From Sphingomonadaceae bacterium (GTDB taxonomy: Bacteria > Chloroflexota > UBA6077), in NCBI GenBank assembly GCA_050261575.1, contig JBLNDL010000067.1, forward strand, positions 62,001 to 89,120: a stretch of DNA of 27,120 bases, written 5' to 3'. The position numbers and the translations under genes were made by a program. The notes below the pieces were generated by a model. That model was not told the origin of the DNA. It saw only the letters and a program-made list of their open reading frames with translations, and made no database searches. This document shows, piece by piece, positions 12,913 to 23,982 of this stretch. Position 1 is the first letter of the stretch. Each line of letters opens with the position of its first letter.

Positions 12913-13836
12913 CTACGGACGTCCAAACAGCCAGGAGAGCAGACCCTTCTGGGCGTGGAGGCGGTTCTCAGCCTGGTCGAACACCACCGACTGCGGCCCA
13001 TCTATCACCTCGTCGGTGATCTCCTCGCCCCGGTGGGCCGGCAGGTCGTGCATCACTATGGCGTCGGGCTTCGCCAGCCTCAGAAGCTCCTCGTCGATTC
13101 GGTATCCGGCGAAGGCCGCCTTTCGAACGGCGTTCTCAGCCTCCTGCCCCATGCTGGTCCACACGTCGGTGTAGAGGATGTCGGCTCCAGCCGCGGCCTC
13201 CACGGGGCTGCGCAGGAGGGTGAAGGTCGCCTCGGTCGCCTCCCTATCGGCCTGAGAGAGTTGAAGCATGGTGGACTTCGGCTCGTAGCCCTCGGGGCAG
13301 GCCACCCGAAGGTGAATACCCACCTTGGCGGTGCCGAGGATGAGGGAGTGGAGAACGTTGTTGCCGTCTCCGATGTAGGCCATGGTCAGGCCCGCCAAGC
13401 GATTCTTCTTCTCTCGAACGGTCAACAGGTCGGCGAGGCACTGGCACGGGTGGCTCAAGTCGGACAGGGCGTTGATCACGGGCACAGTGGCGAAACGGGC
13501 CAGCAACTCCTGATCCGAGTGGCGGTTGGTGCGAGCCACGATACAGTCCACGTAGCGGCTCAACACCCTGGCGACATCGGCAACGCTCTCCCGCTCCCCC
13601 AGACCCACCTCGGCGGGCGAGAGGTAGAGGGAGTGTCCACCCAGATGGCGGACCCCTTGCTCGAAAGAGACCCTGGTGCGAAGCGACGGCTTCTGGAAGA
13701 TGAGAGCCACGGTCTTCCCAGCCAGTTCGGTTCGCCAGCGCCCCTGCTTCGTCTCTTGTTTGAGGACCGAAGCCCTCTCCAGGACTCGCGAGAGTTCGTC
13801 CCGCGATAGGTCGGCTATGCTGAGGATGCTGCGCAT
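12913..13836 (-). CDS. argF: Ornithine carbamoyltransferase
   Basis: FQKPSLRTRVSFE, HPCQ, GDGNNV, YTDVWTSMGQE, MHDLPAHRGEE, QAENRLH; AGGGGGA SD upstream of ATG 13836 (307 aa). Confidence 0.95.
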   Translation of the reverse strand: MRSILSIADLSRDELSRVLERASVLKQETKQGRWRTELAGKTVALIFQKPSLRTRVSFEQGVRHLGGHSLYLSPAEVGLGERESVADVARVLSRYVDCIVARTNRHSDQELLARFATVPVINALSDLSHPCQCLADLLTVREKKNRLAGLTMAYIGDGNNVLHSLILGTAKVGIHLRVACPEGYEPKSTMLQLSQADREATEATFTLLRSPVEAAAGADILYTDVWTSMGQEAENAVRKAAFAGYRIDEELLRLAKPDAIVMHDLPAHRGEEITDEVIDGPQSVVFDQAENRLHAQKGLLSWLFGRP

Positions 13837-15390: not shown

Positions 15391-16068
15391 CTATGCCGCC
15401 TTGCGCATCCGCTGCGGCATGTAGCGCAGGAACCAGTCGCGCGCCAGACGGGCCACCTCCTCCAGAGCGCCGGGCTCCTCGAACAGGTGGGTCGCCCCCG
15501 GCACGATCACCAACTCCGACACACCCGGCAGCAGGTTGTTCGCCTCCTCGTTTAGCTCCACCACCGGCTCGTCGTTCCCGCCGACGATCAGCAGCGTCGG
15601 CGAGACCACCCTCGCCAGGACATCGCCCGCCAGGTCCGGGCGGCCTCCCCGTGAGACTACGGCGGCGATGCTCGCGCCCTCCCGGGCGGCGGCCTTCAGG
15701 GCCGCGGCCGCCCCCGTGCTGGCGCCGAAGTAGCCCACCGGTATCCCGCCGAGATCCGGGTGCCCCCTCACCCACGCGGTCGCCTCCAGCAGCCGCTCGG
15801 TAAGCAGGTCGATGTCGAACACCTGGGTCCGGTCCTCCGCCTCCTCCTCGGTGAGGAGGTCCATCAGTAGGGTGGCAATGCCCCCCTCTTGCAGGACCCT
15901 GGCTACGAAGCTGTTGCGCGGGCTGAACCGGCTGCTTCCGCTTCCATGGGCGAAGATCACCACTCCCCTCGGGTCGGGTGGTAGGCCCAGAATACCTTTC
16001 AGGGCGCCTGCCCTCGATGGAATCTCGACGGACAGCTCCCGCAGTGGCCCGGCGCCACTCTCTGCCAT
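15391..16068 (-). CDS. Dienelactone-hydrolase-like alpha/beta hydrolase
   Basis: FAHGSGSSRFSPRN, nucleophile elbow GYFGASTG, VSRGGRPDLA, GGNDEPV (Asp), GATHLFEE (His); GGAGG SD upstream of ATG 16068. Confidence 0.92.
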   Translation of the reverse strand: MAESGAGPLRELSVEIPSRAGALKGILGLPPDPRGVVIFAHGSGSSRFSPRNSFVARVLQEGGIATLLMDLLTEEEAEDRTQVFDIDLLTERLLEATAWVRGHPDLGGIPVGYFGASTGAAAALKAAAREGASIAAVVSRGGRPDLAGDVLARVVSPTLLIVGGNDEPVVELNEEANNLLPGVSELVIVPGATHLFEEPGALEEVARLARDWFLRYMPQRMRKAA

Positions 16069-16345
16069 GGCCTTCCTCCCTCCTCCAACGATTGGGCGGC
16101 CGGGGGCCATTCCACCGGACCTGAGCAGGTATCTCTGGTTCATGCCAGCTTCTCTGGCGGGAAACGTGTACTCATCTAGAGATTCCTGCTCGGTCCGGCC
16201 ACCCCCTGATCGTGGATGACCCCGCGAGCCGAGCCACTCGGCGCTGCACACCGCATGCCGGAGGATTCGACCTGGAACACGGCGCAGCCCGCCGCGAGCG
16301 GCTTCGGGCCACCAACTCTCACTCCGGAGTCGATCGACCCCACTG

Positions 16346-16354
16346 TGGTAGAAT
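16346..16354 (+). promoter_or_regulatory. Extended -10 element for the EamA gene
   Basis: TGGTAGAAT about 55 nt upstream of ATG 16410. Confidence 0.5.
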
Positions 16355-16409
16355 TGCCCCTGCCCCACACGGCACCACACCATCTGTTCCCTGCAGAAGA
16401 GTTGCGAGA

Positions 16410-17294
16410 ATGATAGGCGAACTGCTCGCGCTGACATCGGCCTTCACGTGGGCCCTGGTCAGCGTCCTCCTCAGAGTCCTCCAGACGCGCGCCAACGCCC
16501 TGTCGCTGAACGCCTTCCGCTCCCTGGTGGCGGCGATCGTCACTGCCGGGGTGGTGGTCGCCACGGGGCGACTGGAGGCCGTGGCCCATTTCTCCCCGTC
16601 CACCGTCTTCATCCTGGTAGCGTCGGTGCTAGTGGGGATGGGAATCGGCGACACACTCTACTTCTACAGCCTGCGGCTGGTGGGTGTCGTCCGAGGGCTG
16701 ATCCTATCCAACGCCTACCCGGTCTTCGCCGCCATCATGGCCGCCGCGTTCCTCGGGGAGCGAATGAGCGTCGGCCTGCTGGTGGGAACGATGCTGGTCG
16801 TGTTCGGCGTCGCGCTCGTGCTGGTCCCGAGCCGCGGGCTCCTCCTGAAGTCCACGGTGGAACCAGGGAAGAACGTGAGACTGGGGGTGGCGCTCGCGCT
16901 GGCTGCGGCTCTCTTCTGGGCGTGCGCGACAGTGCTGGTGCGAGTGGGGGCACAGGAGACCGACGGAGTGGCAGCCACTTCCCTTCGACTGATCGCCGCC
17001 TCGGTCGCCCTGATGGTGGCGTCCGGCCTCAGCAGGTCGGGGCTGCAGACCCCAAAGTACCGAGGCCGGCAACTGCTCGGGATCCTGGCCGCAGGGGTGG
17101 TCACCGCCGCCACCTCCGTCACGTTCCTGCTGGCGGTCCAGTACACTGGTGCCGCCAAGACGGCGACCCTTACATCCACAGCGCCACTCTTCGGTGCGCC
17201 GATGTCGCTCCTGATGGGAGAGCGGCTGACCTGGCAGACCTTGGTGGGCTGCGTGGTCTCCGTCGTCGGGATCTGGCTGGTGATGGCTGGGTAA
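16410..17294 (+). CDS. EamA/DMT family transporter
   Basis: Two EamA repeats, about 10 TM (GELLAL.SA..WA; GDTLYF; P.FAA..A..FLGER; PLFG......GER). Confidence 0.92.
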   Translation: MIGELLALTSAFTWALVSVLLRVLQTRANALSLNAFRSLVAAIVTAGVVVATGRLEAVAHFSPSTVFILVASVLVGMGIGDTLYFYSLRLVGVVRGLILSNAYPVFAAIMAAAFLGERMSVGLLVGTMLVVFGVALVLVPSRGLLLKSTVEPGKNVRLGVALALAAALFWACATVLVRVGAQETDGVAATSLRLIAASVALMVASGLSRSGLQTPKYRGRQLLGILAAGVVTAATSVTFLLAVQYTGAAKTATLTSTAPLFGAPMSLLMGERLTWQTLVGCVVSVVGIWLVMAG

Positions 17295-17367
17295 TCCATG
17301 CTATCCTTGCGCGCGGTTCAGGCGAGAAGCTGACGGTTCCATTCCACGATGAATGGAGATTGACTAC

Positions 17368-18504
17368 ATGCGAGAGAGCATAGTCCTCAGTGACGGCACC
17401 AGCTTCGAAGGCACCAGGTTCGGCTCGCCGACCACTGTGACCGGGGAGGTCGTCCTCTACACGGGGGTGGTGGGCTGGCAGGAGGTGCTTACCGACCCCT
17501 GCTACGCTGGGAAGATCGTGGTTTTCACCTACCCCCACGTGGGCAACTACGGGGTGAACGACGAAGACGTCGAGTCCTCCGACGTGACGGTAAGAGGGAT
17601 AGTGGTTCGAGACCTCGCACGCTTCCACTCCAACTTCAGGGCCAAGGGCAGCTTTCGCGCCTGGGTGGAGGAGAGAGGCATCGCGGGATTGGACGGCGTC
17701 GATACTCGGGCTATCATGGTTCACGCCCGGAACCAAGGGATCGGAACGGGCGCCATCGCGGACAGCCCCGAAGCCGGCCTCCGCGCCCTGCGTGAGACCA
17801 CATCCCCCTTCGAGTGGAACCTGGTGGCCAAGGTCCAGGGGATCTGCCGATGGCCCGCCGCCTCAGGACTGAGGACTGAGGACTCAGAACCGAGCCTTCA
17901 AAGCCCACCTCAATCCTCAGCCCTCGGCCCTCAGTCCTCAGCCTTGCGCCTCGGCGTGCTGGACCTGGGCGGCAAGTACTCCCTCTACCGGCAGATGGCC
18001 GAGCTGGGGTGCGCTCTCCGCTACTTCCCGTGGAACAGCAGCGCCGAGTTGATCGCCGCCTCGGGGGTCGACGGTCTGCTGCTGCCGCCTGGCCCCGGCG
18101 ACCCGAACCGGCTGGGCTCCATTGTCGAGCAGGTCCACCGCCTGGTTGGCAAGCTCCCCATCCTGGGGATCGGCCTGGGCTTCCAGGTGTTGGCCCTGGC
18201 TCTGGGAGGCCGGGTGGTCCGGCTGAAGGCCGGCCGCCACGGGGTGAACTACCCGGTCCGTTCCACGCGGGGCGAGCCGTCGATGATCGTCGCCTGCCAC
18301 CACTCCTTCGCCGTCGACGGCGCATCGCTGCCGCCGGGCGTGGACATCACCTACGTCCACCTGAACGAAGGAACGGCCATGGGGCTCGAGGCCCGAGGGC
18401 TGCGAGCGTGGGGATACCAGTTTCACCCCGGGTGGGACGGGGACAACCGACCCTCTCCTCTGCTGGCGCGCTTCGTCGAGACCTTGCGGACGGCGTCCGC
18501 GTAG
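17368..18504 (+). CDS. carA: Carbamoyl-phosphate synthase small subunit homolog with degenerate glutaminase active site
   Basis: LSDGTSFEG, GEVV, QEVLTDPCY.G..V.FTYPHVGNYG, GVDTRA, GPGDP, but GIGLGFQ instead of GICLGHQ and HPG instead of HPE. GGAG SD favours ATG 17368 over 17353. Confidence 0.93.
   Translation: MRESIVLSDGTSFEGTRFGSPTTVTGEVVLYTGVVGWQEVLTDPCYAGKIVVFTYPHVGNYGVNDEDVESSDVTVRGIVVRDLARFHSNFRAKGSFRAWVEERGIAGLDGVDTRAIMVHARNQGIGTGAIADSPEAGLRALRETTSPFEWNLVAKVQGICRWPAASGLRTEDSEPSLQSPPQSSALGPQSSALRLGVLDLGGKYSLYRQMAELGCALRYFPWNSSAELIAASGVDGLLLPPGPGDPNRLGSIVEQVHRLVGKLPILGIGLGFQVLALALGGRVVRLKAGRHGVNYPVRSTRGEPSMIVACHHSFAVDGASLPPGVDITYVHLNEGTAMGLEARGLRAWGYQFHPGWDGDNRPSPLLARFVETLRTASA
17865..17943. 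repeat. Heptamer-based palindromic element in frame in the carA interdomain linker
   Basis: AGGACTG AGGACTG AGGACTC AGAACCG (17865-17892), spacer, then CTCAATC CTCAGCC CTCGGCC CTCAGTC CTCAGCC (17909-17943); the arms are reverse complements. Confidence 0.85.
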
Positions 18505-18506
18505 CC

Positions 18507-18616
18507 TCGCAGCCCGCCTGCGACGAGACTCGCGCCATCACATTCCGTCGCAGCCAGTCTGCAGTGGATACGCACCATCCTGAAGCATCGCAACTCGTCT
18601 GCGACAGGGACTCGCG
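18507..18616. repeat. Three ~40-nt tandem units, each starting with a TCGCAG-N5-CTGCGA palindrome
   Basis: TCGCAGCCCGCCTGCGA (18507), TCGCAGCCAGTCTGCAG (18548), TCGCAACTCGTCTGCGA (18588); units 1 and 3 continue with GACTCGCG. Confidence 0.65.
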
Positions 18617-18656
18617 TCGGAGACAGGGTCCGGCGCCACACGTTCTGGAGGTGACC

Positions 18657-21600
18657 ATGCCAAAGCGAACAGATATCCGCAAGGTGCTGATGATCGGCTC
18701 CGGACCCATCGTGGTCGGCCAGGCATGTGAGTTCGATTACTCCGGCAGCCAGGCATGCAAGGCGTTGCGGGAGGAAGGCTACGAGGTGGTCTTGGTCAAC
18801 TCCAATCCAGCCACCATCATGACCGACACGGTGATGGCGGACCGCACCTATATCGAGCCGATCACTGCGGAGGCGATAGAGAAGATCATCGCACGGGAGC
18901 GGCCCGACGCCATCATCCCCACCCTCGGGGGCCAGACGGGGCTGAACGTGGCGGTGTTCCTCGCCCGCCAGGGGGTGTACGAGAGGTACGGGGTCGAGGT
19001 GCTGGGCGCCGACCCCGAGGCGATCACCCGCGCCGAGGACAGAGACGAGTTCAAGAAGGCGATGCAGGAGATTGGCGTCAAGACCCCAGCCAGCGGCATC
19101 GCCACCTCGGTGGAGGAGGGGATGAGGATAGGCCTCTCCATCGGCTTCCCGCTGATCCTGCGCCCGGCCTTCACCCTCGGGGGCACCGGCGGCGCCACCG
19201 TCTACAACCGCGAGGAGCTGGAGTCCTACCTGCACAAGGCGCTGGACATCTCCCCGGTGCACCAAGTGCTGGTGGAGCAATCGGTCATCGGCTGGAAGGA
19301 GATCGAGTTCGAGGTGATGCGCGACTGCGTGGACAACGTGATCGCGATCACCTCCATGGAGAACGTCGATCCCATGGGGGTGCACACCGGAGACTCCGTC
19401 GTGGTGGCCCCATCCCAGACCCTCTCGGCGCCGGAGTACGCCGAGTACGTGCGCCTCAGCAAGAAGATCATCCGCAAGATCGGGATCACAGGTGGCGGGG
19501 CCAACATCCAGTTCGCTGGAAACCCCGAGACGGGTGAGATCGTGATCATCGAGGTGAACCCACGTCTCTCCCGCTCCTCGGCGCTGGCCAGCAAGGCTAC
19601 CGGCTTCCCGATAGCCCGGATCGCCACCAAGCTGGCCGTAGGATACACCCTGGAGGAGATCCTCAACTCCGTCACCGGCTGCTCGCGGAGCTACTTCGAG
19701 CCGACGGTAGACTACTGCGTCTTCAAGATCAGCCGCTTCACCTTCGAGAAGTTCCCGACCGCCGAGCGGGTCATCAACACCTCCATGAAGTCGGTGGGCG
19801 AGGCCATGGCCATCGGGCGCACCTTCAAGGAGGCGCTACAGAAGGGGATCCGCTCCCTGGAGATCGGCCGCTTCGGGCTGGGCGACGACGGGAAGGACCC
19901 CCCGCCAGCCCAGCGACGAGACCTAGATCTGATCCGGCAGAAGCTGCGGATCCCGAACGACGAGCGCTTCTTCTATATCCGCTACGCCTACGAAGCTGGC
20001 TTGACCACGGAGGAGATCCACTCCCTCTCCCACATCGACCCTTGGTTCCTGGAGAACATCCGAGAGTTGGGAGAGCGGGCGAAACAGATCCACCGTTACG
20101 CCGGCCACCCGGAGGAGCTTCCCCCGGAGGTGCTGCGGAAGGCCAAGGCCGACGGCTTCTCTGACCGGCAGCTAGCCCACCTGCTCAAGGTCCGGGAGGC
20201 GGAGATCTACGACCTCCGCCATCGGCTGGGGATACGCCCGGTCTTCAAGCTGGTGGACACCTGCGCCGGAGAGCTGGACGCCGCCAAGCCCTACTTCTAC
20301 TCCACCTACGAGCAGCACGACGAGAACCGGGTAACCGACAACCCGAAGAAGGTGATCGTCCTCTCGGGCGGACCCAACCGGATCGGACAGGGGATCGAGT
20401 TCGACTACTGCTGCTCCCACGCCGTCTTCGCCCTGAAGGAGATGGGCTACGAGGCGATCATCATCAACTCCAATCCGGAGACCGTCTCGACCGACTACGA
20501 CACGAGCGACAAGCTGTACTTCGAGCCGCTGACTCGCGAGGACGTGTTGGAGATCGTCCAGGCTGAGAAGCCGGAGGGGGTCATCGTCCAATTGGGAGGG
20601 CAGACCCCCCTGAATCTGGCCGTCCCGCTGGAGCAGGCCGGAGTGCGGATCCTGGGGACCTCGCCCGACGCCATCGACCGTGCCGAGGACCGGGAGCGGT
20701 TCAAGCAACTGGTGGAGAAGCTGGGGCTAACCCAGCCGGCCAATGGCACGGCCTTCTCCTTCGAGGGCGCGCGGAAGGTGGCTGCGGAGATCGGCTATCC
20801 CGTGGTGGTGCGCCCCAGCTACGTTCTTGGCGGCCGGGCCATGGAGATCGTCTACGACGACGAGGAGCTGCGGGAATTCATGGGGAAGGCGGCCGAGGCA
20901 TCGCCCGAGCGCCCGATCCTGATCGACAAGTTCCTGGAAGACGCCATCGAGGTAGACGTGGACTGTGTCGCCGACGGCACCGACGTGGTGCTGGGGGGCA
21001 TCATGGAGCACATCGAGATGGCGGGCGTCCACTCGGGCGACTCCGCCTGCTGCCTCCCACCCTTCTCCCTGACCGAGGCGCAGATGGAGCAGATCCGCGC
21101 CCAGACAGTGGCCATGGCGCTCGAGCTGGGAGTGAAGGGGCTGATGAACGTCCAGTACGCCATCAAGAACAATGTCCTGTACGTCCTCGAGGTGAACCCC
21201 CGAGCCTCCCGCACGGTGCCGTACGTCTCCAAGGTCACCGGCGTACCCCTGGCGAAGGTTGCGACCCAGGTGATGTGTGGCCGCACCCTGAAGGAGATCG
21301 GCTTCACCAAGGAAGTAACCTTCGACCACGTCGGCGTCAAGGAGGCGGTGTTCCCCTTCTCCCGGTTCCCGGGCGTCGACGCGGTGCTCGGGCCGGAGAT
21401 GAAGTCCACCGGCGAGGTCATGGGAATCGACGCGGACTTCGGCGTCGCCTACGCGAAGAGCCAGATGGCGGCCGGCAGCGCCTTGCCCACCAGCGGCGCG
21501 GTGCTGTTCTCCCTCAAGAACATGGACAAGCGCCCAGCGCTCTTCCTGGTGAAGCGCATGGCCGATCTGGGGTTCAAGATCTTGGCCACCGAGGGCACCG

Positions 21601-21917
21601 CCCACTTCCTCCGCGGCCAGGGGATCGAGGTGGAGATCGCCCACAAGGTCTCCAGCGGGATACGTCCCAACATCCTCGATCAGATCAGAAACCATCAGAT
21701 CCAGTTGATCGTAAACACCCCCTCCGGCAAGCACCCGCGCCAGGACGAGGTGGCAATCCGCTCCACCGCGGTGCTGTACGGGGTGCCGCTGATCACCACC
21801 TTGCAGGGGGCGTCGGCAGCGGTGGTGGGGATCGAGCAACTGGTCAAGAAGGGGCTTGCCGTCAAGACCATCCAGGAGTACCACTCCGAGGTTCGAGGTC
21901 GGCCGAGTCTGGTGTGA
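18657..21917 (+). CDS. carB: Carbamoyl-phosphate synthase large subunit
   Basis: MPKRTDI, GQACEFDYSG, HTGDS, EVNPRLSRSSALASKATG, GQGIEFDY, RPSYVLGG, HSGDS, EVNPRASRTVP, MKSTGEVMG and MGS-like C-terminus; GGAGGTG SD; 1086 aa. Confidence 0.98.
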   Translation: MPKRTDIRKVLMIGSGPIVVGQACEFDYSGSQACKALREEGYEVVLVNSNPATIMTDTVMADRTYIEPITAEAIEKIIARERPDAIIPTLGGQTGLNVAVFLARQGVYERYGVEVLGADPEAITRAEDRDEFKKAMQEIGVKTPASGIATSVEEGMRIGLSIGFPLILRPAFTLGGTGGATVYNREELESYLHKALDISPVHQVLVEQSVIGWKEIEFEVMRDCVDNVIAITSMENVDPMGVHTGDSVVVAPSQTLSAPEYAEYVRLSKKIIRKIGITGGGANIQFAGNPETGEIVIIEVNPRLSRSSALASKATGFPIARIATKLAVGYTLEEILNSVTGCSRSYFEPTVDYCVFKISRFTFEKFPTAERVINTSMKSVGEAMAIGRTFKEALQKGIRSLEIGRFGLGDDGKDPPPAQRRDLDLIRQKLRIPNDERFFYIRYAYEAGLTTEEIHSLSHIDPWFLENIRELGERAKQIHRYAGHPEELPPEVLRKAKADGFSDRQLAHLLKVREAEIYDLRHRLGIRPVFKLVDTCAGELDAAKPYFYSTYEQHDENRVTDNPKKVIVLSGGPNRIGQGIEFDYCCSHAVFALKEMGYEAIIINSNPETVSTDYDTSDKLYFEPLTREDVLEIVQAEKPEGVIVQLGGQTPLNLAVPLEQAGVRILGTSPDAIDRAEDRERFKQLVEKLGLTQPANGTAFSFEGARKVAAEIGYPVVVRPSYVLGGRAMEIVYDDEELREFMGKAAEASPERPILIDKFLEDAIEVDVDCVADGTDVVLGGIMEHIEMAGVHSGDSACCLPPFSLTEAQMEQIRAQTVAMALELGVKGLMNVQYAIKNNVLYVLEVNPRASRTVPYVSKVTGVPLAKVATQVMCGRTLKEIGFTKEVTFDHVGVKEAVFPFSRFPGVDAVLGPEMKSTGEVMGIDADFGVAYAKSQMAAGSALPTSGAVLFSLKNMDKRPALFLVKRMADLGFKILATEGTAHFLRGQGIEVEIAHKVSSGIRPNILDQIRNHQIQLIVNTPSGKHPRQDEVAIRSTAVLYGVPLITTLQGASAAVVGIEQLVKKGLAVKTIQEYHSEVRGRPSLV

Positions 21918-22018
21918 CCGATCCGCATCTTCAGTGGCATTCTTCTTGCTCCGTCCAGGCCGTCCCGACCTACGGGCAGGATAACCCACAGAAGATCCGA
22001 GCTAGAAAGGTCACCGCG

Positions 22019-22519
22019 ATGCCGTTACAGAATCCCAGAGATTCCTTCGCATACGAGCTCAGCGTTGCCCACTCGATGGAACAGTCCCTGCAGAGGCAAC
22101 TGCCTCAGTTGGAGCAGGTCTGCCAGAACCCGCAGGTGAAGCAGCTCATCAGCAGCCACATCACCGACACCCAGCGGCAATCGACGCGGCTGGAGGAGTG
22201 CTTCAGGATGATGGGCATGCAGCCGATGAACGTCACCTGCCACGCCATCGACTGCATGCAGCAGGACTTCCAGTCCTTCATGCAGCAGAGCCCCAGCCAG
22301 GAGATCATCGACATGTTCTGCCTGGGTGCCGCCGGCAAGTCGGAGCACTTCGAGATCGCCACCTACAAGGGGCTGATCGAAATGGCCCGGATGCTGGGCG
22401 AGACGCAGGTGGTCTCTCTTCTGGAGGACACCCTGCAGGAGGAGCAGCGCGCCGCCCAGACGGTCGAGCAGTTGGGGCGCCAGATCGGCGCCCAGATTAT
22501 CCACAGATCTCGGCCTTAG
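22019..22519 (+). CDS. Ferritin-like YciE/YciF (DUF892) protein
   Basis: EL..AHSMEQ, HITDTQRQSTRLEECF, EHFEIATYKGL..MA..LG, TLQEEQ; GAAAGGT SD upstream of ATG 22019. Confidence 0.88.
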   Translation: MPLQNPRDSFAYELSVAHSMEQSLQRQLPQLEQVCQNPQVKQLISSHITDTQRQSTRLEECFRMMGMQPMNVTCHAIDCMQQDFQSFMQQSPSQEIIDMFCLGAAGKSEHFEIATYKGLIEMARMLGETQVVSLLEDTLQEEQRAAQTVEQLGRQIGAQIIHRSRP

Positions 22520-22567: not shown

Positions 22568-22815
22568 ATCGCACCGACTGTGCAGCGGGTGGGCCGGGTT
22601 CCGGTCCCACCCTCCGCCTCCCGCGTCGCCACTGCACACCCCCGATCTCAGGAAGTGGGAGTGTTGCCCCCGCACCTCAGCAGCGGGGGTCCGCCGAATC
22701 CTCGCGGCCCGCAACCACGACACGGCGTGGCAGCCATCGCTCTGCTTGCAGGAGAAGCACGTGCCTGCTAGCATCGAAGTATGTGTAGTGACGGCCTGAA
22801 TTGGAGGTCGGTGAG

Positions 22816-23982
22816 ATGTCATCAACTATCGGAGACAGAGGTAGTGAGGTAATCGCTACCCTGGAGCGCAACTGGCGGGCTGAGATGGAGGGCGCCGCCA
22901 CCTACCGCGAGCTGGCGGCGATGGAGAAGGATGGGCGGCGCAAGGCACTGCTCATCAAGCTGGCCGAGGCGGAAGAGCGACACGCCAGCAGGTGGGCCGA
23001 GCGGATCGTGGAGCTGGGCGGCCAGGATCCGTCGACCAAGGGGGTACCGGTGGGACCTTCCAGGGGTGTGATCCTGACGGCCAAAGCCGTCGATCTGGAC
23101 ACGGCACTTCGAAAGGCCGAGGCCACGGAGGAGGAGCACGTCCGTCAGTACGAGGCCCAGGCCCGCGACCTAGGCGACCAGGGGATCGCGCGGATCCTCG
23201 AGGAAGTGGCCCAGGACGAGTCGTCCCACGCTCGAACCCTGCGCGCCATGGCGGGCCCCGGCCGCGAGGTTCAGAGCCGGCTGGAGTCCATCCTTCGCCG
23301 GGAGAAGTGGCACGGCAAGGGCGGGAGCTGGATCGGCGACGCCATCTACGGAGTGAACGACGGCCTCACCGCGGTGTTCGGCATCGTCTCTGGCGTCGCG
23401 GGAGCCACCAGCCACAACGAATTCATCGTGGTGGCTGGCCTGGCCGGGGTGCTCTCCAGCGCCCTCTCCATGGGCGCCAGCGCCTACCTAGCCAACAAGG
23501 CCGAGAAGGAGGTCTTCGAGGCAGAGCTGGCACGGGAGAGGAAGGAGATCGAGGAGAACCCCGAGGAGGAGAGGGAGGAGCTGGAGCTGTTCTACCAACT
23601 CAAGGGGTTCACCGAGGAAGAGGCCCGGACCCTGGTGGAGAGGCTGTCGGAGAAGCCGGACCAGTTCCTGCGCACCCTAGCGCACGAGGAGCTGGGGTTG
23701 GCCGAGGAGCGGCTGCCGAATCCGAACCTGGCGGCGGTGGTGGGCACCGTCTCCACGGCGCTCGGCGGCATGGTGCCGGTAATCCCATTCTTCTTCCTGT
23801 CGGGCACCGTGGGCATCCTGGTATCGCTGGTGGTGAGCATCGTGGCCCACTTCGCGGTGGGCGCATCCAAGAGCTTGGTCACACTGCGCAGTTGGTGGAA
23901 GAGCGGCCTGGAGATGACGGCGGTGGCACTGATCGTGGCGATAGTCGCCTACGGTCTGGGCAAGGCACTGGAGATAGGGTAG
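22816..23982 (+). CDS. Rubrerythrin/ferritin-like plus VIT1/CCC1 fusion (MbfA-like Fe/Mn exporter)
   Basis: Two ExxH diiron half-motifs (AEERHA, QDESSHA), then VIT1 motifs DAIYGVNDGL, ALSMGASAYL, EEREEL..FY..KG, HEELG; GGAGGT SD upstream of ATG 22816. Confidence 0.9.
   Translation: MSSTIGDRGSEVIATLERNWRAEMEGAATYRELAAMEKDGRRKALLIKLAEAEERHASRWAERIVELGGQDPSTKGVPVGPSRGVILTAKAVDLDTALRKAEATEEEHVRQYEAQARDLGDQGIARILEEVAQDESSHARTLRAMAGPGREVQSRLESILRREKWHGKGGSWIGDAIYGVNDGLTAVFGIVSGVAGATSHNEFIVVAGLAGVLSSALSMGASAYLANKAEKEVFEAELARERKEIEENPEEEREELELFYQLKGFTEEEARTLVERLSEKPDQFLRTLAHEELGLAEERLPNPNLAAVVGTVSTALGGMVPVIPFFFLSGTVGILVSLVVSIVAHFAVGASKSLVTLRSWWKSGLEMTAVALIVAIVAYGLGKALEIG

Follow-up and report, generated by a model that had tools for sequence, protein, structure and literature searches.

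Here we describe carA* and carB*, adjacent genes for the small and large subunits of a carbamoyl-phosphate synthetase (CPS), in a 27,120-nt stretch of DNA (the window) from the assembly of a soil bacterium, filed as a Sphingomonadaceae bacterium and placed by GTDB in the Chloroflexota lineage UBA6077 (GCA_050261575.1, contig JBLNDL010000067.1, positions 62,001 to 89,120, forward strand). The asterisk marks the lineage whose small subunit lacks the catalytic Cys (carA*/CarA*, small subunit; carB*/CarB*, large subunit); L and G numbers denote relatives' loci and genomes, respectively. We propose that the pair is a second CPS, one that uses ammonia and has a small subunit devoid of catalytic function, and that it is a bacterial counterpart of vertebrate CPS I; judging from the sequences, we put the probability of this reading at roughly 0.55. 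CarA* has lost its nucleophile and has kept an intact fold. Its gene is under purifying selection and has been inherited together with that of a distinct CarB, in which substitutions on the ammonia tunnel are fixed.

Loss of the glutaminase nucleophile from CarA*

The following features of carA* are used below (window positions).

17368..18504, + strand: carA*, 378 aa plus stop; CarA-like small subunit without the catalytic Cys (Pfam, NCBIfam, AlphaFold2)
17356..17359, + strand: Shine-Dalgarno sequence GGAG, 8 nt ahead of the carA* ATG (direct sequence reading)
17380..17757, + strand: CPSase small-chain domain, CarA* residues 5-130 (PF00988, 150.9 bits)
17863..17934, + strand: disordered low-complexity interdomain linker, residues 166-189 (pLDDT <50; heptamer DNA repeats)
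17959..18438, + strand: class-I glutamine amidotransferase (GATase)-like domain without nucleophile, residues 198-357 (PF00117, 122.3 bits)
17500..17502, + strand: TGC, Cys at E. coli Ser47 (alignment)
18172..18174, + strand: GGC, Gly at E. coli Cys269, the nucleophile position (alignment)
18295..18309, + strand: CHHSF replacing QNHGF, E. coli 310-314 (Q310 to C, N311 to H, G313 to S)
18424..18453, + strand: HPGWDGDNRP; His353 kept, Glu355 gone, tunnel-wall loop 356-362 replaced (alignments)

The carA* frame is uninterrupted from 17368 to 18504, with zero frameshifts and zero internal stops. Its PF00988 match spans the entire profile (positions 1-126); in E. coli CarA, the N-terminal domain is the part that docks on CarB. 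Against TIGR01368, the model for glutamine-hydrolysing CarA, CarA* scores 295.1 bits, under the cut-off of 307.35, and against the broader model NF009475 it scores 285.1 bits, over the cut-off of 221; unlike the window protein, Planctomycetota members of the clade described below exceed the TIGR01368 cut-off (341-365 bits). Comparison with E. coli CarA chains in the Protein Data Bank (PDB) gave an E value of 5e-64. An AlphaFold2 model of CarA*, built with 20 relatives (mean pLDDT 85.8), superposes on E. coli CarA chains with a TM score of 0.87 and on human CPS1 with a TM score of 0.80. We conclude that, as modelled, both domains of CarA* fold confidently onto E. coli CarA. The linker is the sole disordered part of the model. 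Within its DNA, Tandem Repeats Finder identified 2.9 copies of AGGACTG (17865-17884) and 4.1 copies of CCTCAGC (17915-17943), which are near reverse complements; the heptamer occurs in 19 runs across the genome, and the length of the insert at the linker varies among relatives. A search of the ESM Atlas with CarA* returned generic CarA clusters only.

We aligned CarA* to E. coli CarA, taken both from PDB chains and from carA of NC_000913. The first-pass annotation of the window, which first proposed a glutaminase-dead CarA, had asked that its E. coli residue numbers be confirmed by alignment; our alignment confirms C269, H353, E355 and S47, and all five altered motifs that it had read from the DNA (PILGIGLGFQ, TDPCY, PPGPGDP, CHHSF and the site of Glu loss) were recovered in place. 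At the positions of the Cys-His-Glu triad, CarA* has Gly269, His353 and Gly355, and hence no nucleophile. Gly355 is encoded by GGG at 18430-18432, which a phmmer alignment sets opposite E. coli E355; an alternative MAFFT alignment inserts four residues after HP and sets an Asp there. Because the loop after HP aligns in two ways, an Asp lying two to four residues beyond may take the place of Glu355. We conclude that loss of the Cys nucleophile is unambiguous, whereas the residue set opposite Glu355 depends on the alignment.

CarA* differs from E. coli CarA in addition by N240 to P (PPGPGDP for SNGPGDP), H272 to F and G293 to V. Many of these changes are shared with relatives: G269, V293, C310, H311 and S313 are common to 9/9 close-clade sequences, that is, the window and eight other rows representing seven distinct proteins (the G003 sequence was entered twice). 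Across the core clade, N311 is replaced by His in 25/28 rows, residue 313 is Ser in 23/28 and G293 is Val or Leu in 24/28, and position 310 is Gln in 26/28. Cys at E. coli position 47 is exclusive to the window; the eight other close-clade rows have Ala, and the wider clade has Ser in 22/28. Other substitutions set the clade apart from canonical CarA. Met36 has become Val in 32/32 clade sequences, compared with Met in 49/49 canonical sequences (window V34, codon 17467-17469), and Thr37 has become Val in the clade. The loop at 356-362 (ASPGPHD) is replaced; P358, G359, P360 and D362 are invariant in the 49 canonical sequences, none of the four survives in the core clade (28 rows), and four Omnitrophota-type rows keep P358/G359.

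A relocated nucleophile might in principle have preserved the glutaminase, with Cys310 or Cys45 (window subclade) or Ser313 (wider clade) acting together with His353. Consistent with this, His353 and a nearby acidic pair are kept, Cys310 is found in 9/9 close-clade sequences, and the window alone has a Cys at E. coli S47. However, no candidate is conserved clade-wide, given the predominance of Gln at 310 (26/28), the incomplete conservation of S313 (23/28) and the variability of position 47, and the tunnel-wall loop behind the site has been replaced. We therefore regard a relocated nucleophile as very improbable.

Authenticity of carA* and selection on the gene

The first-pass annotation had allowed that the two unusual codons were assembly errors, or that carA* was a decaying copy. 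Two other soil-metagenome studies yielded contigs with the identical GGC codon (X5 record 8 and X6 record 14, each with zero differences). Only run X2, a possible source of the window DNA, covers the GGG codon at 18430-18432, and the contigs from other studies (X5, X6 and X7) do not reach it; confirmation from other studies thus extends to the nucleophile codon and not to the codon at the Glu position.

Selection was assessed by Nei-Gojobori counting against L044, the closest relative with DNA (71% identical protein). For carA*, pN was 0.183 (dN 0.21) and pS was 0.755, which is saturated, so that no dN/dS ratio can be given; dN was 0.179 in the GATase-like domain, not above that of the N-terminal domain (0.215). 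The corresponding values for carB* were dN 0.069 and dS 1.41, a ratio of 0.05. Since dN is only 0.21 where synonymous sites are saturated, we conclude that carA* is under purifying selection.

For pairs matched in divergence, at a CarB identity of 0.65-0.75, canonical CarAs are 0.67 identical (GATase domain 0.69, N-terminal domain 0.68), and the identity of degenerate CarAs is 0.42, with 0.47 in the N-terminal and 0.42 in the GATase-like domain. CarA* thus evolves faster than canonical CarA; much constraint is gone, mostly in the former glutaminase domain, yet the protein is retained everywhere. This faster change relative to CarB (0.42 versus 0.67) is the one point in favour of a neutrally decaying duplicate or an assembly error. 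Against it stand the intact frame, the dN of 0.21 with saturated synonymous sites, a multi-phylum clade with invariant positions, the recurrence of the GGC codon in two other studies and the confident fold, and we give decay or error almost no chance of being correct. The GC content of carA* (0.671) and carB* (0.645), compared with that of the window (0.665), does not indicate recent transfer.

An old clade of Cys-less CarAs with their own CarBs

The loss had been viewed as an event of this bacterium. That view does not hold: the window pair is a member of an old clade that extends across several phyla. With 8000 candidates scored, a homologue search found 1526 proteins at E ≤ 1e-20. Position 269 is Gly in 111, Cys in 8 and Ala in 1 of the 120 best matches, and only the 8 with Cys have the full Cys-His-Glu triad. 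The close clade of the window consists of seven matches, 67-82% identical, from Chloroflexota metagenome-assembled genomes (MAGs) and metagenome contigs; beyond it, matches drop to ≤46% identity and are mostly from Planctomycetota.

When each species was represented by a single genome, our scan gave 80 loci, of which 31 belong to the degenerate clade. Outside the clade, the CarA of L109 (from a Clostridiaceae MAG) carries Ser at 269 (GVSLGHQ) together with QFDPET, and lies beside a long-branch CarB; on its sequence it looks like an independent degenerate case. The remaining loci, including the truncated L108, were counted as canonical. carB lies directly downstream in 28/31 clade loci, and the contigs of the other three end there. 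Clade CarBs are 66-72% identical to the window CarB* over nearly their full length, across phyla (L044, 89%; the partial L046, 79%), and CarBs beside canonical CarAs are 48-60% identical to it.

Of the 56 rows in a CarA tree, 32 are degenerate, and a branch with SH-aLRT support of 97.8 separates these from the rest. In a CarB tree of 49 rows, a single clade (25 rows, support 100*) holds the partners of degenerate CarAs, and the canonical CarB of the window's genome falls outside it. The window's CarA* thus belongs to a monophyletic clade, a point that the first-pass annotation had proposed to check. Because the two trees agree, they indicate that CarA* and CarB* have been inherited together since a single origin.

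The clade comprises Planctomycetota, a few Chloroflexota, MAGs labelled Proteobacteria or Deltaproteobacteria, and Omnitrophota. Four rows titled 'uncultured Anaerolineales' (L061, L065, L066 and L073) are nested in Phycisphaerae in the CarB tree, on short branches, which could reflect gene transfer or mislabelled bins. In a sister subclade (L070, L080, L083 and L093, from Omnitrophota, Planctomycetales and other MAGs), residue 269 is Ser or Cys, residue 270 is Cys or Thr, and residue 353 is Tyr or Ser; its motifs are GISCGHQ, GVCCGHQ, GISTGHE and QYYPxS.

Among the 41 closest genomes, a close homologue was found only in the window's own genome (G000, 858.7 bits) and in G003 (558.4 bits), with the next match at 215 bits. 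A clade profile run against 251 Chloroflexota genomes exceeded 500 bits only in the same two, the next best score being 393; of eight next-best Chloroflexota CarAs, one (L139) was dropped because of a wrong reading frame, and the seven that we read are all canonical. (These two samples include three flagged unpublished genomes, G037, G080 and G200, which were used only in these tallies.) In 201 Planctomycetota genomes, two seeds included, there were five matches at E ≤ 1e-125. Since so few matches occur in the three samples, we conclude that the pair is rare within any one phylum and patchily spread.

Loss of the triad is not confined to this clade. When ~15 billion proteins are clustered at 50% identity, the Cys-His-Glu triad is missing from 64 of the 150 cluster representatives that best match the clade profile (P0126-P0272), and the phenomenon is therefore much wider than one gene. 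Val36 is present in 21/61 degenerate representatives and Met36 in 40/61; those that keep Met36 may represent separate losses. A quick tree of the cluster representatives needs at least four well-supported changes of state, which indicates, at the level of these sequences, that the triad has been lost more than once among prokaryotic CarAs.

Fixed changes on the ammonia path of CarB*

The large subunit contributes three features.

18657..21917, + strand: carB*, full-length CPS large subunit, 1086 aa (TIGR01369, NF003671; GGAGG upstream)
19350..19352, + strand: ACC, Thr at E. coli CarB Cys232, an ammonia-tunnel gate residue
19449..19451, + strand: GTG, Val at E. coli CarB Arg265

As the first-pass annotation had stated, carA* is an intact open reading frame with a good Shine-Dalgarno sequence (GGAG, 8 nt before the ATG) and is followed by carB*, which starts 152 nt further on. 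The spacer (18505-18656) had no terminator-like site in our scan, a promoter and terminator scan of 16000-22200 gave no excess over shuffled sequence, and Rfam at the gathering threshold found nothing across the window, spacer included. In L044, carA* and carB* overlap.

CarB* scores far above the cut-offs for the large subunit (TIGR01369, 1455.7 bits versus 1027; NF003671, 1613.1 versus 599), and its set of Pfam domains is complete, with two ATP-grasp halves, an oligomerisation domain and an MGS-like domain. Conservation is complete among the residues that we checked, which belong to the two ATP sites, the carbamate tunnel and the nucleotide-effector site. Thirteen CarB positions are fixed differently in the clade (25 rows: 22 core and 3 Omnitrophota-type), and 12 of them lie within residues 232-398. 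The ammonia-tunnel gate of CarB is formed by C232, A251 and A314 (PMC8674909, PMC6241538). Residue 232 is Thr in 25/25 clade rows and Cys in 23/23 canonical rows, so that CarB* departs from the canonical gate at Thr232 and keeps Ala251 and Ala314. Position 265 is Arg in 23/23 canonical rows and T, V, E or A in 25/25 clade rows; we take Arg265 to be part of the tunnel wall, at the subunit interface. I234M and T249V are further clade-fixed changes. Joint replacement by Ala of CarA P360/H361 and CarB R265 is said to 'perforate' the E. coli tunnel. From the aligned positions, the clade-fixed changes cluster on the ammonia path, as expected if the delivery of nitrogen has changed.

A second, canonical CPS in the same genomes

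The pair is not the sole CPS of the organism, as had at first seemed conceivable. Contig C20 of the same assembly carries a canonical pyrB-pyrC-carA-carB operon, in which carA lies behind pyrC and an ATCase-type gene (pyrB). This second CarA scores 460.1 bits with TIGR01368 and has GICLGHQ, QNHEF and HPE, and carB is the next gene. Counting this genome (G000), 14/17 genomes with a degenerate CarA hold a second CarA scoring at the canonical level. It was read as canonical in G000, G041, G042, G043, G045, G479, G480 and G482, and judged by score only in G003 and in G408, G421, G470, G483 and G484 (460-523 bits). The three genomes without one are small or possibly incomplete (G044, 2.3 Mb; G478, 1.0 Mb; G481, 1.5 Mb). 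In G478 and G481, the only CarA found is triad-less, with Ser/Cys or Ser/Thr at 269/270 and Tyr at 353. These triad-less CarAs adjoin pyrimidine-related genes: dihydroorotase (DHOase) and PyrK-type genes lie around L083, and phosphoribosyltransferase (PRTase)/MnmG genes lie upstream in L070. DHOase genes are found upstream of both L080 and L083, and the PyrK-type gene is downstream of L083.

A proposed route for free ammonia

We propose that CarB* performs the complete ATP-dependent chemistry, and that CarA*, being unable to form a thioester, would no longer hydrolyse glutamine. CarA* would be retained as a folded docking or structural partner of CarB* and would help to form a remodelled path of entry for ammonia. 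That the two proteins bind each other is suggested by gene order, by co-phylogeny and by residues that co-vary at the interface. Free NH3 would come in from the cytoplasm by way of the pocket emptied at Gly269, or through an opening at the subunit interface created by the replaced CarA 356-362 loop and the change at CarB Arg265, or through both. It would then pass the altered gate (Thr232/Ala251/Ala314) and meet carboxyphosphate. According to PMC4655335, tunnel-blocked and perforated E. coli variants lose the use of glutamine and show normal activity with external ammonia. Also in favour of the proposal are Val or Leu at the G293 position, where human CPS1 has its old tunnel blocked, the GATase-less GMP synthase beside carA* in nine Planctomycetota-type loci, CarB* as the only CarB found in G041, and a triad-less CarA as the only one found in G478 and G481. 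Because the canonical, glutamine-using CPS sits in a pyrimidine operon, the two enzymes may be isozymes for different nitrogen supplies or pathways. NH3 use and the route drawn here are what we infer from the substitutions.

Several observations weigh against this proposal. Affinity of E. coli CPS for ammonia is poor, and physiological use of ammonia by CarA*-CarB* would therefore need an improved affinity. Our interpretation of the replaced loop presumes that CarA P360 and H361 are tunnel-wall residues. A conserved Asp/Glu pair two to four residues past Pro354 is a possible partner for His353. In G041 (one 5.97-Mb contig), the canonical carA is intact but has no accompanying carB, and since this carA has no other partner, CarB* may also work with a genuine glutaminase. 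Residues of the glutamine pocket have largely been kept (G241, G243, L270 and H312 in 28/28, Q273 in 26/28 and H353 in 21/28), which would also fit continued binding of a ligand. E. coli gate variants impair the use of ammonia too, as stated in PMC4655335, and a gate residue is changed in CarB*.

The kept pocket bears on a different role for CarA*, that of a ligand-sensing regulatory subunit whose pocket binds glutamine or another metabolite without hydrolysing it and tunes a CarB* that uses NH3 from solution. Besides the six kept residues, the newly conserved H311 (25/28) and S313 (23/28) and the purifying selection on the GATase-like domain (dN 0.179) are in keeping with such a role. However, constraint has relaxed further in the GATase-like domain than in the N-terminal one (0.42 versus 0.47, compared with 0.69 versus 0.68 in canonical CarA), no ligand can be named, and the fold alone can account for the kept glycines and for a Gly at the nucleophile elbow. 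We consider a regulatory CarA* unlikely, although it is the strongest of the alternatives.

The gene content of G041 raises the further question of whether the small subunits are interchangeable, with canonical CarA serving CarB* in trans and CarA* competing for docking, so that the source of nitrogen is switched. CarB* is the only CarB found in this genome, so that a cell can have CarB* as its sole large subunit; G041 has two CarAs, and at its canonical locus (L171, C1:2108000-2124000) what follows carA is no carB but 66 residues left over from the GATase domain of guaA, as if guaA-carB had been deleted. The second canonical-level CarA in 14/17 degenerate-CarA genomes is also compatible with exchange. 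However, each CarA has its own adjacent CarB in the window's genome, G042, G045 and G482, and the changes in the CarB* tunnel and at the CarA* interface co-occur, which favours a dedicated pair. On balance, exchange of small subunits seems to us improbable, and the ammonia-using pair remains the reading that we prefer.

Neighbouring genes

Two neighbours of the pair in the window are considered first.

16407..17294, + strand: EamA-family transporter (Pfam EamA), co-oriented, 73 nt upstream of carA*
12913..13836, - strand: argF, ornithine carbamoyltransferase (TIGR00658, 400 bits)

A functional link between carA* and the EamA transporter, which the first-pass annotation had offered as speculation, is doubtful: EamA is upstream in L044, but a dienelactone-hydrolase gene directly precedes carA* in L159 (L160 starts inside carA*, and its upstream neighbour is outside its span). 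We therefore rejected EamA as a conserved feature of carA* loci. argF, which lies 3.5 kb from carA* with three genes between, is the only ornithine carbamoyltransferase found in the genome; the two OTCace-family matches of the genome are argF and the pyrB on C20. No OTCace-family match was found on the carA* contig in G003, G042, G045 or G482, some of these contigs being short. A link of carA*-carB* with arginine, seen only in the window, is thus not supported. In the OTCace-family search, a first look found none in G041, and G042 gave one weak match; either these genomes have divergent arginine and pyrimidine carbamoyltransferases or matches were missed.

Other genes of the window (MutS2, Der, CdaA, YbbR and ComEC among them) are those of an ordinary chromosome. 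A DUF892 gene lies downstream of carB* in both the window (22040-22516) and L044 (L044:8022-8519), and in the window it is followed by a VIT1 transporter fused to a ferritin/rubrerythrin-like domain (22801-23979). Proteobacteria-labelled loci have a LysE-type exporter before carA* (L047:7309-7941) and a DUF3795 gene after carB* (L047:12478-12924, L049:12400-12888).

In nine Planctomycetota-type loci, the gene directly before carA* encodes a GMP synthase ATP-pyrophosphatase of ~311 aa (PP-loop and GMP_synt_C) with no GATase.

L048:1950-2888: GATase-less GMP synthase
L050:5713-6645: GATase-less GMP synthase
L053:5079-6116: GATase-less GMP synthase
L056:6531-7931: GATase-less GMP synthase
L057:10-840: GATase-less GMP synthase
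L061:185-1135: GATase-less GMP synthase
L066:55-987: GATase-less GMP synthase
L067:5784-6938: GATase-less GMP synthase
L075:5814-7112: GATase-less GMP synthase

The L048 protein passes TIGR00884 (360.5 bits versus 338.75). A full-length guaA is also present in 4/5 genomes with a GATase-less GMP synthase; in G041, the only GuaA found is GATase-less. The canonical locus of G042 (L172, C40:46000-57873) contains, in order, a gene for a class-II amidotransferase, carA, guaA (GATase and ATP-pyrophosphatase) and carB, with both glutaminases intact, and the order at the degenerate locus is guaA without GATase, carA*, carB*. It appears that a module was duplicated and that both glutaminases were then lost from the copy. 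It is possible that the GATase-less GMP synthase is itself ammonia-dependent and paired with the Cys-less CPS, and its position suggests a glutamine-independent module in Planctomycetota. The window's genome has one normal guaA and no GATase-less GMP synthase beside carA*.

Significance and comparison with known systems

In the literature that we searched, from which subscription journals were largely absent, there was no description of a bacterial Cys-less CarA or of an ammonia-dependent bacterial CPS. A 2018 review gives CPS I as the enzyme of animal liver mitochondria and CPS II as that of bacteria; in textbook and review accounts of this kind, ammonia-specific CPS is confined to ureotelic vertebrates and the bacterial enzyme depends on glutamine (PMC6022934). 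The carA*-carB* lineage is conserved in bacteria, appears to be previously undescribed, and probably uses free ammonia. Public records label members of the clade '(glutamine-hydrolyzing) carbamoyl-phosphate synthase small subunit', a systematic misannotation that distorts metabolic models of Planctomycetota, Omnitrophota and soil Chloroflexota. A Cys-less clade with matched tunnel changes would also be a natural experiment in how amidotransferases abandon their glutaminase and re-route ammonia. The wider claim, to which we give somewhat less than even odds, is that of an old, horizontally scattered bacterial lineage of ammonia-dependent CPS, a separate counterpart of CPS I with a co-evolved ammonia entry, that forms part of a 'glutamine-bypass' module in Planctomycetota. 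If true, such a module would let cells in ammonium-rich habitats make pyrimidines, arginine and GMP while sparing glutamine.

CarA*-CarB* shares with the E. coli CPS (PDB 1JDB, 1C30 and 1BXR; CPS II type) the two-domain small subunit, the carA-carB order and the full set of CarB domains, and the window pair keeps the checked ATP-site and carbamate-tunnel residues and the gate residues A251 and A314. It differs in the small subunit by C269G, the absence of Glu355, N311H, G313S, M36V, G293V and the replaced 356-362 loop, and in the large subunit by C232T, I234M, T249V, R265V and nine further clade-fixed changes. Engineered tunnel mutants of the E. coli enzyme resemble the clade in part: CarA G359F (PDB 1M6V, by its title) alters the loop that the clade has replaced (P358, G359, P360), and the 'perforated' enzyme, reportedly CarA P360A/H361A with CarB R265A, lacks R265 as the clade does. 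However, the substitutions of the clade are natural, fixed and joined with loss of the nucleophile.

Bacillus and Lactobacillus have paired arginine- and pyrimidine-specific CPS enzymes, in which both small subunits are active glutaminases. The window's genome is similar in having two complete carAB sets, one of them in a pyr operon, but its other set lacks the nucleophile, and a link of that set with arginine genes is seen in the window only.

The closest parallel in function would be vertebrate CPS I (PDB 5DOT/5DOU), which also has a glutaminase-like domain without the Cys and an obstruction at the position of G293 (Val or Leu in the clade). Human CPS1 uses free ammonia, has Ser294 in place of the catalytic Cys, and has Gln318, at the position of E. 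coli Gly293, blocking the old tunnel, according to PMC4655335. However, CPS1 is one fused polypeptide of ~1500 residues with Ser at the nucleophile position, keeps the gate Cys648 and needs N-acetylglutamate, whereas the bacterial clade has two genes (152 nt apart in the window), Gly at 269 and a changed gate Cys. The window CarA* is also closer to E. coli CarA (219.9 bits) than to human CPS1 (126.5 bits). The first-pass annotation was thus right that the loss is independent of that in vertebrates, a Cys-to-Gly change in a separate small subunit as opposed to Cys to Ser294 in a fused enzyme. By analogy, we conclude that CarA*-CarB* probably works most like vertebrate CPS I, yet lies outside that family.

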